Below are positions 46,236 through 48,720 of a stretch of 64,000 nt of DNA, piece after piece. A program made the translations under genes and the position numbers. The notes under the pieces were generated by a model, which did no database searches, was not told where the DNA came from, and saw only the letters and a list, made by a program, of their open reading frames with translations. Positions within the stretch are counted from its first letter, which is position 1, and each line of letters opens with the position of its first letter. This DNA is from Candidatus Oxydemutator sp. (lineage in GTDB: Bacteria; Pseudomonadota; Gammaproteobacteria; Poriferisulfidales; Oxydemutatoraceae), in NCBI GenBank assembly GCA_965203445.1, contig OZ241883.1, positions 384,001 through 448,000 of the forward strand. The letters are read 5' to 3'.

Positions 46236-47000
46236 ATGCGCAAACGTTTCGGACAGCATTTCCTGCGCGACCAGGCGGTCGTCGCGCGCATCATGGAGAG
46301 CGTCGCGCCGGCGCCCGGCGACAACCTGATCGAAATCGGCCCCGGCCGAGGCGCGTTGACGCGGCCTTTGCTCGAGCGCGCCCGGCGGCTCGCGGTGATC
46401 GAGATAGACCGCGACCTTGCGCGCGGCCTCGAGGCGTGGAGCGCGCCCGGCGGGCGCCTGCGCGTGCATTGCGAAGACGCGCTGCAATTCGACTTCGCGC
46501 GCGCCGGCGGCGCCCTCAGGGTCGTCGGCAATCTTCCCTACAACGTATCCACGCCGCTGCTGTTTCGGCTGGTGCGCTTCCACGAGCAGGTCCGCGACCT
46601 GCACTTCATGTTGCAGCGCGAAGTGGTCGCGCGGCTGGCGGCGCGCCCGGGCGACGCCGCCTATTCGCGGCTCAGCGTCGTCAGTGCCTGCTGTTTCGAC
46701 GTGCGCCCGTTGTTCGACGTGCCGCCCGGGGCGTTCGCGCCTAGGCCCGCGGTCGTGTCCAGTTTCGTGCGCCTGCTGCCGAAACCCGCGCCGCCGCCCG
46801 CCGTCCGGGAACGCCTCGATTCGCTGGTCAAACTGGCGTTTTCACGGCGTCGCAAAACCGTCGCCAACGCACTGGCGACGCTGTTTGACCGGGAGGCGTT
46901 GGAGCGGCTTGGGATAAATCCGGGCCAGCGCCCGGAAACCCTGCGTGTTGACCAGTTTATGAAAATGTTGGGAACTATATACAAAAATGCACCATCGTAA
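46236..47000 (+). CDS. rsmA: 16S rRNA dimethyladenosine transferase (last codons supplied by the inserted element)
   Basis: RKRFGQHFL, EIGPGRGALT, GNLPYNVST and MLQREV. Confidence 0.96.
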   Translation: MRKRFGQHFLRDQAVVARIMESVAPAPGDNLIEIGPGRGALTRPLLERARRLAVIEIDRDLARGLEAWSAPGGRLRVHCEDALQFDFARAGGALRVVGNLPYNVSTPLLFRLVRFHEQVRDLHFMLQREVVARLAARPGDAAYSRLSVVSACCFDVRPLFDVPPGAFAPRPAVVSSFVRLLPKPAPPPAVRERLDSLVKLAFSRRRKTVANALATLFDREALERLGINPGQRPETLRVDQFMKMLGTIYKNAPS

Positions 47001-48296
47001 TGGTGATCAATGTATAGTGTGCCGTCTTGACGAGTTTATGAAAGTTTATCGAACAATCCGATACAGGTTACATGCCGGCACGCAGGCCAAAGCCCGCAAG
47101 TTGGCGGGCACGGCAGGGGCGTGCCGTTATGTGTGGAACCATTTCGTGGGGAAGTTGCGGGATGAGTATGCCGAGGAAGGCGAGTGCGATTACCGGTTTT
47201 ATTCGCTTGGTAAGCGGTTCACGGCTTTGCGAAGGGATGGCGATACGTGGTTGCAGGAGTATTCCATGCCGATAGTGCGCCAGGCATTGAAACCGATAGA
47301 AACCGCATATCGGCGGTTCTCTAAGAAGGAAGGAGGCCTGCCACGTTTCCATGCCAAGTATGTCCGCCCGGATAGCTTCCCGTTATGTGCCGGTGCATTC
47401 CGTATGCGTGGGCGCTACCTGTACATCGCCGAGATAGGCGAGGTGCTACTGCTTGGCCACAACCCATACCCGGATGGCGTGCCAAAGTCCGGCACGGTCA
47501 AGCGGGAATGCGGCAAGTGGTATGCGTATATCACATACGAAGTGGAGCAGACCGAAGTGTCGAAAGCAGAGTACTCTGTAGGAATAGATCGAAACGTCGG
47601 CCAGGTAACGTTGTCCGACGGGACGATGTATCGTATCCCGGATACGGCAAGGCCTGAGCGGCGCGTCAGGCGTTATCAGAGGATGATGGCGAGGCGTCAG
47701 GGGCCGAACCGCAAGAAGGGGATCAAGGCGTCGAACCGATGGCTACGCGCACAGTTGCTACACCAGAGGGCGCAGGCCACGTTGCGCCACGCCAGACGGA
47801 ATTGGTGCCATGGCGTATCGAGGGAAGTGGCCGACGGGTATTCTCTTGTCCATCTGGAGAAGTTGAACATCAAAGGAATGTCAGCCGGTGCCAAGGGCAC
47901 CAAAGAGAATCCAGGCAGGAACGTCCGGGCGAAGGCAGGCTTGAATCGAGTGATACTCGCCACCTGCTGGGGCAAGTTCCATCAGTGCCTGGATTACAAG
48001 ACGAATACGAACTACGTGAATCCCGCATACACAAGCCAGACGTGCAATGAGTGCGGGCATGTAGATAAGAACGGTAGAAGGTCGCAATCAGTATTTATTT
48101 GTACCGCCTGCGGTCATCGGGACAATGTGGACTGGAATTCTGCCCTTTGTATAAAGGGCAGAGGAGACGCCGCGATGAGTATGAAGGCCTCCGGGAATGG
48201 GGCTGCTGGACGTGGAGGATACGGGGTTAGCCGGCCCGTGAAGCGTCAAATTGATACAGAACGCCACCCGGTGGTGCATTTTTGTATATAATTCCC
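46970..48296 (+). mobile_element. 1327-bp TIR-bounded non-autonomous element carrying tnpB (IS1595-family-like ends)
   Basis: TIRs 46970-46997 and 48269-48296 match at 26/28 positions; the direct repeat AAAATGTT lies at 46962-46969 and 48297-48304; no transposase inside. Confidence 0.9.
47038..48291 (+). CDS. tnpB: RNA-guided endonuclease TnpB family protein
   Basis: N-terminal YRL...AGACRYVWN, RuvC-I VGIDRN, RuvC-II HLEKL, zinc finger CNEC...CTAC and RuvC-III NVDWN. Confidence 0.94.
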   Translation: MKVYRTIRYRLHAGTQAKARKLAGTAGACRYVWNHFVGKLRDEYAEEGECDYRFYSLGKRFTALRRDGDTWLQEYSMPIVRQALKPIETAYRRFSKKEGGLPRFHAKYVRPDSFPLCAGAFRMRGRYLYIAEIGEVLLLGHNPYPDGVPKSGTVKRECGKWYAYITYEVEQTEVSKAEYSVGIDRNVGQVTLSDGTMYRIPDTARPERRVRRYQRMMARRQGPNRKKGIKASNRWLRAQLLHQRAQATLRHARRNWCHGVSREVADGYSLVHLEKLNIKGMSAGAKGTKENPGRNVRAKAGLNRVILATCWGKFHQCLDYKTNTNYVNPAYTSQTCNECGHVDKNGRRSQSVFICTACGHRDNVDWNSALCIKGRGDAAMSMKASGNGAAGRGGYGVSRPVKRQIDTERHPVVHFCI

Positions 48297-48316
48297 AAAA
48301 TGTTAAACAATGACGG
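48186..48316 (+). ncRNA. Predicted TnpB omega/reRNA (scaffold + flank-derived guide)
   Basis: Hairpin GGCCTC-[CGGGAAT]-GGGGCT, GACGTGGAG...GAAGCGTC stem and terminal hairpin ATACAGAA-CGCCAC/GTGGTG-TTTTGTAT; loop GGGAAT is complementary to the terminal ATTCCC. Confidence 0.6.
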
Positions 48317-48339
48317 CGATCAACTCCGGGAGGTTTGAC

Positions 48340-48720
48340 ATGCCAGACAAACTCTACGACATCAACGTGAGCGTGGAAACGCAGTTCCTCGAGGAACAGT
48401 CCGATCTGCTCAAGGATCGCTACGTTTTCGCGTACACCATCACCATTCTGAACGAGGGCAAGGTTCCGGCGCAACTGATCTCCCGCCACTGGATCATCAC
48501 CGACTCGAACCAGAAAATTCAGGAGGTGTCCGGCGAGGGCGTCGTCGGCGAGCAGCCCTATCTGCGTCCCGGAGTGAGTTTCCGCTACACCAGCGGCGCG
48601 GTCCTGGAGACGCCGTTCGGCACGATGCGCGGCAGCTACCAGATGCTCGCCGAAGACGGCACCGAATTCGAGGCCGAGATCGAAGAGTTTCAGCTGACCG
48701 CGCCGCACACCCTGCACTGA
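48340..48720 (+). CDS. apaG: ApaG protein
   Basis: YVFAYTITI, QLISRHWIITD, GEGVVGEQP and YTSG; SD GGAGG. Confidence 0.96.
   Translation: MPDKLYDINVSVETQFLEEQSDLLKDRYVFAYTITILNEGKVPAQLISRHWIITDSNQKIQEVSGEGVVGEQPYLRPGVSFRYTSGAVLETPFGTMRGSYQMLAEDGTEFEAEIEEFQLTAPHTLH

Follow-up and report, generated by a model that had tools for sequence, protein, structure and literature searches.

A tnpB cassette with IS1595-type ends and a predicted guide RNA that overlaps the right inverted repeat in a Candidatus Oxydemutator genome

TnpB, the ancestor of Cas12 and a compact genome-editing enzyme, has a role that is understood only for the peel-and-paste elements of the IS605 and IS607 types, which leave no scar on excision and are restored by a homing cut. 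Here, we describe a tnpB gene in an element of another kind, 1327 bp long and located at the rsmA-apaG locus (positions 46970-48296) of a 64,000-nucleotide (nt) stretch of Candidatus Oxydemutator sp. DNA, referred to below as the window (assembly GCA_965203445.1, contig OZ241883.1, positions 384,001 to 448,000). Judging from sequence comparisons, we consider it likely (probability about 0.8) that this is a transposase-less member of the IS1595 group of insertion sequences (IS), with tnpB and a guide-RNA scaffold as its sole cargo, and that it is moved in trans.

Inverted repeats and target-site duplications are both absent from IS200/IS605 and IS607 elements (PMC13565253). Altae-Tran et al. 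(2023, PNAS, PMC10691335) reported prokaryotic TnpBs tied to DDE transposases in six branches (DDE-1 to DDE-6), each of them with inverted terminal repeats, and inferred that solo TnpBs whose ends are near-identical to these move in trans. The window element resembles these in having a prokaryotic tnpB between DDE-type inverted repeats, a tnpB 3' end no more than 250 bp from the transposon end, and solo copies that appear to be moved in trans (PMC10691335). It differs in its partner, since the DDE family named for the Altae-Tran TnpBs is IS630, with IS1595 present only in a profile list of the supplementary information (PMC10691335); the DDE partners given in a 2026 review are ISL2, IS630 and IS1031, and the same review treats the reason why a cut-and-paste DDE element would keep TnpB as an open question (PMC13565253). 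The association rule of Altae-Tran et al. asked for a DDE gene within 1000 bp of tnpB (PMC10691335), which the solo clade described here would mostly fail, and the clade could still be one of their branches.

For the IS1595 family, 8-bp duplications are usual and the transposase combines a zinc finger with a DDE domain (PMC8101967); transporter IS carrying passenger genes are also known in this family (TnCentral preprint, bioRxiv 10.1101/2021.05.26.445724). The window element shares with transporter IS the ends starting with GG, the 8-bp duplication and the presence of passengers (PMC8101967; bioRxiv 10.1101/2021.05.26.445724), while its cargo, in contrast to theirs, is an RNA-guided nuclease whose predicted scaffold uses the right inverted repeat structurally. 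Fanzor1 and Fanzor2* are likewise non-autonomous, with repeats and duplications, a nuclease as the only gene and a repeat predicted to lie in the guide scaffold (Yoon et al. 2023, PMC10711439; Bao and Jurka 2013, PMC3627910), whereas the present element is bacterial and encodes a TnpB of ordinary size with the standard RuvC layout. In the Fanzor1 scaffold as drawn by Yoon et al., the duplication is also included and no pseudoknot is predicted (PMC10711439); here, a pseudoknot-like pairing uses the transposon tip, so that the guide would begin with the duplication. The sequence-only reading that first drew attention to the locus had presented it as a bacterial parallel to Fanzor-carrying DDE transposons. 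As a claim of being the first such case this was overstated, since DDE-linked solo TnpBs with inverted ends have been in print since 2023 (PMC10691335). Among publications judged by title or abstract, a search that did not extend to the supplementary data of Altae-Tran et al., none was found that links TnpB with IS1595 ends.

Sequence reading, the listing of open reading frames (ORFs) and a repeat search agreed, as had been read from the sequence at the outset, that tnpB is the sole gene between 28-nt inverted ends, complementary at 26/28, with a perfect 8-bp duplication on either side of the 1327-bp element. The coordinates given at that stage, 46962-48304, delimited a real element and took in both copies of the duplication, which lie outside the element proper. 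An inverted-repeat search returned the ends as 36 nt at 89%, since the pair extends into the duplication. When 25 nt of the repeat were searched with up to 3 mismatches, just two sites were found in the window, and none of 100 dinucleotide shuffles gave two matches (0/100). Both element junctions were spanned by contigs of two studies. Three DNA contig runs gave no clean empty-site joint; the sole long skip (46738 to 48418, X2) misses the element ends. An empty allele was found in the same genus, as had been suggested as a check: rsmA and apaG adjoin without an insertion in 3/3 same-genus genomes (G001-G003), where the site reads …TTTATGAAAATGGTAAAC… with a single octamer AAAATGGT (one mismatch). 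The insertion substitutes the last ~10 codons of rsmA, so that …MLNNDGDQLREV is replaced by …MLGTIYKNAPS.

The element has repeats starting with GG, an 8-bp duplication and ends matching a transposase-bearing member, as expected of the IS1595 type, and it encodes tnpB only, without the DDE_Tnp_IS1595 transposase with N-terminal zinc ribbon that marks an IS1595 element. It is a dependant of the IS1595 family and not an autonomous member, because the transposase comes from separate elements with the same ends. Exactly one IS1595-family transposase gene, with a Zn_ribbon_IS1595 domain, was found in the genome (PF12762, 151 bits; NF033547, 205.9 bits against a cut-off of 75). It lies in an element of 2616 bp (G000:C1:1978350-1980965; L026:501-3116) with the same tips, repeats at 26/28, a perfect duplication, ATCAGAAA, and as passenger an N6-adenine DNA methyltransferase fused to an HNH domain; such a methyltransferase-HNH passenger is what the autonomous IS1595 partners carry here. 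The inner repeat of this resident element, …ACTTAAATCTACA, is the type of tnpB copies c4, c5, c12 and c13, not of the window copy. The inner type of the window copy, …ACAAAAATGCACCA, occurs on an IS1595 element of the same-genus genome G001 (L128:276-2809; 2534 bp, transposase plus methyltransferase, duplication CTTCTTTA), whose ends equal the window right repeat over 25/25 nt. The search for an IS1595-family transposase sharing these ends, which the sequence-only reading had called for, was therefore answered by the match over 25 nt. The end types of other tnpB subfamilies were found in relatives on simple IS1595 elements of 1.27-1.41 kb, all flanked by 8-bp duplications, and also on the IS1595 elements beside tnpB loci in L041, L069 and L088.

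According to the mechanism that we propose, an IS1595-family DDE transposase encoded elsewhere would bind both inverted ends and excise the cassette, which would then be inserted into an A/T-rich octamer that becomes duplicated. The proposal of a non-autonomous cut-and-paste element mobilised in trans is borne out by the duplications of sister copies, the empty site and the IS1595 elements with the same ends, and movement in trans by an IS1595-family transposase appears well supported on these comparisons.

Three further observations concern the transposase elements. The pairing of transposase and methyltransferase seen in the resident element recurs in G001 (L128) and L041. At L053:2724-5238, a tnpB element lies directly against an element with an IS1595-family transposase (296 aa, ~30% identity to the resident one); this was the sole candidate for a composite with transposase and tnpB within one pair of ends, and it was rejected on finding truncated inner ends and no shared duplication, so that the arrangement may be a fusion by deletion. 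Annotated relatives of the transposase are named only 'IS1595 family transposase'. The tip GGGAATTAT fits ggnnatTAT, which we take to be the ISfinder end consensus of ISNwi1; assignment to the ISNwi1 subgroup is provisional.

The search for other repeat-bounded copies with their own 8-bp duplications was successful in this genome and in others. The 2.38-Mb single-contig genome holds 13 full-length copies with 64-81% DNA identity to the window copy, along with a copy that has an internal deletion and two short derivatives (163 and 180 bp), and the 12-nt tip GGGAATTAT(A/G)TA stands at both ends of all genomic copies. Among the 13 full-length copies, the duplication matched at 8/8 positions in 8, at 7/8 in 2, at 6/8 in 2 and at 4/8 in 1. 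Copies c10 and c11 differ at 1 position in 1371 nt and lie at separate sites with different duplications, which by their sequence is probably the mark of recent movement; c4 and c5 are 97.3% identical. Solo tip matches of the window copy's inner type, with no nearby partner end, were also seen outside the window at G000:C1:731639, 1233365 and 145507, and may be relics of lost elements.

The spread of the clade was scanned in one genome per species, which gave 76 loci, 59 of them full-length, from uncultured-bacterium assemblies titled Gammaproteobacteria, Arenicellales, Candidatus Porisulfidus, Candidatus Oxydemutatoraceae, Thiotrichales, Chromatiales and Opitutales. The first automatic pass recovered a repeat pair in 35/59 full-length loci, with flanks matching at 8/8 in 14, at 7/8 in 6, at 6/8 in 1 and lower in 14. 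Relatives of the window's genome contributed 11 more sites at ≥7/8, one of them only after the left end was moved by one base. When 300 genomes were sampled evenly from the class, 3 contained the clade, this genome included, and in the protein database at least 120 clusters were found at ≥48% identity, named at most 'transposase'. In two genomes of one genus (L133 in G009 and L134 in G005), the same tnpB element is found at one shared site, the flanks being identical and the duplication AATGAGTG in both; this insertion would either predate the split of the two genomes or have been inherited with the region. Two clade members, ~54% identical, come from a record titled Opitutales, a different phylum (L042 and L043), the latter with degenerate inverted ends and a AAAGGCAG duplication, both read by eye, and their sequences suggest horizontal spread. 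A 3611-bp Arenicellales tnpB element (L051:1630-5240, duplication ATAAATAG) has a 525-aa DDE_5/DDE_Tnp_1 transposase gene nested in its 5' region.

At 36 insertion sites with duplications of ≥7/8, the octamer was 72-100% A/T, compared with ~50% A/T in the flanks. Immediately 5' of the octamer stood G at 24 of these 36 sites, A at 5, T at 7 and C at none; the complementary C followed the octamer in 7/36, the mirrored position being less constrained. With 11 extra sites that were read by eye, the base on the tnpB-start side was G in 28, A in 12 and T in 7 of 47, again never C. The G 5' of the duplication had been considered as a target-adjacent motif (TAM) for TnpB; this candidate was rejected, as it weakened to a purine in 40/47 sites and came near a roughly symmetric transposase preference. 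No conserved 4-5-nt motif was seen beside the insertion sites in the 36-site logo.

The only long ORF in the element is tnpB, which encodes 417 aa from the family-conserved MKV start at 47038; an alternative in-frame ATG at 46987 would give 434 aa, and the TAA stop codon falls within the right inverted repeat. The protein scored above the Pfam cut-offs for HTH_OrfB_IS605, OrfB_IS605 and Cas12f1-like_TNB and reached 184.8 bits with NCBIfam guided_TnpB (cut-off 100), and it fell below the curated cut-offs of the models for IS200/IS605-type and IS607-type TnpB. It matched ISDra2 TnpB chains over their full length (E = 7e-15); in a plasmid collection, the best TnpB matches were at most 34% identical and of ordinary IS200/IS605 type. 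The three RuvC acidic motifs and the zinc finger noted in the sequence-only reading are present (D/E/D residues and CxxC…CxxC) and kept in the 11 genomic copies aligned: D184 (GIDRN), E274 (HLEKLN), D362 and D365 (HRDNxDxN), C336, C339 and C358 are invariant, and C355 nearly so. The locus has two hallmarks of a TnpB/OMEGA system, namely a helix-turn-helix, an OrfB_IS605 (RuvC) domain and a zinc ribbon with D-E-D, together with a predicted scaffold that ends at the element boundary. The ORF is intact in 13/14 genomic copies (406-426 aa), and the ratio of nonsynonymous to synonymous substitution rates (dN/dS) between subfamilies is 0.12-0.17.

An alignment of the last ~165 nt of 23 diverse copies was folded with RNAalifold, which gave 30 pairs, 13 of them with compensatory changes. 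In this consensus structure 96.1% of cells were paired, against 86.2% in shuffles (0/500 reached the value) and at most 47% with partners slid, in a test that favours the structure, as it was derived from the same alignment. At the 3' end, a conserved CGTCAAATGG is followed by a hairpin of the form AUAC-arm-loop-arm'-GUAU and then by nine nt, AUAAUUCCC, to the terminus. The terminal hairpin was visible in ~28/34 individual folds, read by eye. Its arms are wholly different between subfamilies and are still paired, 5/5 pairs of helix 7 having changed on both sides, and the inner half of the right inverted repeat supplies its 3' arm. A scan of positions 46800-48500 against Rfam, at E up to 1, gave no match.

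The last six nt of the element, AUUCCC, are the complement of the transposon tip and can pair with GGGAAU in a conserved upstream hairpin loop. These positions (alignment A5, columns 73-78 with 222-227) were paired in 98.2% of cells in 37 sequences. Pair 77/223 was AU in 27, UG in 4, CG in 3 and UA in 1, and pair 78/222 was UA in 35 and CG in 1. Variant tips are thus matched by the loop, with A-U replaced by C-G in 3, by U-A in 1 and by U-G in 4, and the neighbouring pair changed from U-A to C-G in 1. In the loop, these changes also replace the encoded amino acid (Asn by Ile or Thr), and the constraint is therefore not at the protein level; the U-G cases would fit RNA pairing better than a repeated DNA motif. 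In TnpB guide RNAs, a pseudoknot is formed by loop-to-tail pairing just upstream of the guide (Yoon et al., PMC10711439). The model of the last ~165 nt as a conserved RNA with the right inverted repeat built in is supported as to its structure by these changes. Because the tip and the inner half of the right repeat both take part in the predicted fold, the scaffold would end exactly at the transposon boundary, as canonical TnpB guide RNAs do, and transcription past this point would add the duplicated octamer and the flank as guide. A guide within the element, with the 5' arm of the hairpin directed at the repeats, was judged unlikely, as its arms measure just 5-12 nt and include G-U pairs.

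Short elements with family ends, a guide-RNA-like 3' module and no tnpB, 216-368 bp in length, were seen at L169 and L170 (G018), L161 (G006) and L173 (G001). One of 216 bp occurs twice in G018, with duplications of AAAGAAAA (8/8) and 7/8, and one of 262 bp in G006; both kinds keep the ends and the last 105-150 nt, which make up the RNA module. These elements could be guide-RNA-only satellites.

The histories of tnpB cores and end modules are discordant. Two loci of one genome, L066 and L070, encode TnpBs that are 93% identical and have unrelated inner repeats; when aligned, the two are near-identical between the ATG and …CGTCAAACGG, and beyond these sharp breakpoints they are unrelated. Conversely, L069 shares 13/14 inner-repeat positions with L077, and likewise with L070, at just 56-57% TnpB identity. 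Judged on sequence, both within-genome gene conversion of cores that stops where homology ends and an exchange of end modules would fit this discordance.

A rival account has a canonical IS605/IS1341-type tnpB element nested in an older miniature inverted-repeat element, a case that the sequence-only reading had named among those that would refute it; movement would then be by single-strand peel-and-paste, and the repeats and the duplication would belong to the host element only. There are real likenesses to the IS1341 group, namely the TnpB architecture, a guide-RNA-like scaffold over the 3' end of the gene that stops at the element boundary, and a subterminal right-end hairpin, which at 9 nt from the terminus resembles an IS200/IS605 right end; repeated nesting might also give discordant core and end-module histories. 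Two distant solo TnpBs (34-37% identity), from two further genomes of the 300-genome sample, had no surrounding inverted repeats, which would suit nesting as well, although outgroup sampling is thin at these two. In contrast to IS200/IS605 elements, however, the window element has inverted repeats and a duplication and has no left-end hairpin. In many relatives the left repeat (~24 nt) abuts the tnpB ATG, so that an IS605-type left end could not be accommodated, and none of the inner boundaries is flanked by a conserved 4-5-nt target. Furthermore, neither Y1 (PF01797) nor IS607-type (NF033518) transposases were matched in the complete genome, in searches that did match control genomes, and yet near-identical copies occupy different sites; in every subfamily the duplications sit at the outer, not the inner, ends. 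Nesting is thus largely refuted as the mode of movement, and we regard it as highly improbable as an account of the locus.

Two other accounts accept movement by IS1595 transposases and concern what TnpB does. In one, tnpB is a functionless hitch-hiker, in line with the transporter-IS concept of IS1595 elements with passengers, with the lack of a TAM signal at insertion sites and with the break that excision already makes. The low dN/dS across subfamilies, the intact ORFs with invariant catalytic residues, an RNA structure that compensatory changes have preserved and that varies in step with the transposon tip, and the retention of the RNA module in short derivatives all speak against it, and we find it improbable. 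In the other, the target of TnpB and its RNA is not the empty site but the transposon or its occupied junction, and they might aid excision or second-strand cutting or regulate the transposase. Such a role would agree with two features: nothing but the transposon tip is constant on the 5' side of the presumed guide, and the left inner repeat recurs in sequence as the 5' arm of the terminal hairpin. However, autonomous IS1595 elements with the same ends carry no tnpB, and TnpB is therefore not needed for movement; hairpin arms of 5-12 nt are short for a guide, and G-U pairs in the stem point to an RNA fold and not to DNA recognition. We give this account, too, only a small chance.

Several observations weigh against the reading that we prefer, a trans-moved IS1595-type cassette with a functional TnpB and guide RNA. 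The window copy is single in its genome, its nearest sister being 81% identical in DNA, and its cognate transposase type was not found there, the resident transposase having a different inner type; the window copy may for this reason now be immobile. Co-occurrence favours the reading, PF12762 being matched, among 31 related genomes, in 12/12 with the tnpB clade and in 8/19 without it, but the statistic is weak since the genomes are kin, and 2 of the 12 clade-positive relatives hold only fragments of an IS1595 transposase. In the first pass, 14/35 repeat pairs had flanks matching at <6/8 and 24/59 loci had no pair; many of these 24 are a longer Arenicellales form of 1.8-1.9 kb with the tip GGGACTTATATAC, where five further perfect duplications were found. 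The fold of the window copy itself is unexceptional (z = -1.24), and the test of the consensus structure, as said, favours that structure. As for target choice, the sites offer no conserved motif fit for a TAM, just an A/T-rich octamer after a purine.

What TnpB would gain for the element is a separate matter. With a guide derived from the flank, TnpB would cleave the same site wherever it is still empty, which would help the element to persist or to spread; we hold this proposal, drawn from sequence, tentatively and at somewhat less than even odds. A benefit of the homing kind is less plain here, since cut-and-paste excision already leaves a double-strand break, a point also raised in the 2026 review (PMC13565253). 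A more elaborate version, which we consider unlikely in its entirety, has the guide-RNA nuclease module re-fitted to a cut-and-paste transposon: the whole right repeat would serve as RNA structure, end modules would be swapped among cores to track any IS1595 transposase at hand, gene-less short derivatives would spread the RNA module, the guide would start with the duplicated octamer, the adjacent motif would be loose, A/T-rich or a purine, and set by the target preference of the transposase, and cutting of empty sites would drive the element.

The features of the locus are collected in the table below.

Table. Features of the tnpB element and its insertion locus in the window
Feature	Position	Strand	Evidence
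rsmA, 16S rRNA dimethyltransferase, interrupted target gene	46236..47000	+	Pfam RrnaAD, 203.7 bits; tail compared with empty alleles
Left target-site duplication copy, AAAATGTT	46962..46969	.	single AAAATGGT in three same-genus genomes
Left terminal inverted repeat, 28 nt, GGGAACTATATACAAAAATGCACCATCG; first 12 nt, GGGAAYTATATA, are the tip common to the whole family	46970..46997	+	matches the ends of the G001 IS1595 element
tnpB, 417 aa, intact	47038..48291	+	ORF listing, profiles, alignment; dN/dS against sister copies 0.14-0.17
Guide-RNA (omega RNA)-like structured region	48127..48296	+	RNAalifold; overlaps the tnpB 3' end and stops exactly at the element end
GGGAAU loop motif	48199..48204	+	predicted pseudoknot with AUUCCC at 48291-48296
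Terminal hairpin AUAC-arm-loop-arm'-GUAU	48254..48287	+	per-sequence folds; 3' arm is the inner half of the right repeat
Right terminal inverted repeat, 28 nt, CGGTGGTGCATTTTTGTATATAATTCCC	48269..48296	-	25/25 nt identical to the G001 IS1595 element end
Right duplication copy, AAAATGTT; presumably the first bases of the guide if the RNA reads through	48297..48304	.	sequence
apaG, downstream neighbour, parted from rsmA by the insertion	48340..48720	+	Pfam ApaG domain, 124.5 bits; start MPDKLYD picked by comparison with relatives

At the insertion locus, the end of rsmA (46944-46978) resembles a segment upstream of and across the tnpB start (47023-47057), at 27/35 positions (CGTGTTGACCAGTTTATGAAAATG against CGTCTTGACGAGTTTATGAAAGTT). 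Part of this likeness, TTGAC…ATGAAA, is family-wide, and a related version is present in sister copies c1 and c7; the likeness may have arisen by chance around a family motif, or it may hint that homology helps in the choice of site. Elsewhere in the window, at ~51178 and ~52463, the 12-nt tip is matched with 2 and 1 mismatches, respectively, which may be chance.

The general design of a tnpB between DDE-type ends has been known since 2023; the IS1595 partner and a transposon end built into the guide RNA appear not to have been described before. Together with the whole right repeat as guide-RNA structure, a wholly non-autonomous clade and the discordance of cores and ends also seem new. Surveys that require a nearby transposase gene (within 1 kb of tnpB) will overlook clades whose members are all non-autonomous. 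In the guide-RNA model presented here, the transposase binding site and the RNA fold would share nucleotides, and the family offers a small test case, with a cassette of 1.2-1.4 kb, matching transposases that can be named, and many natural insertion sites with empty alleles.

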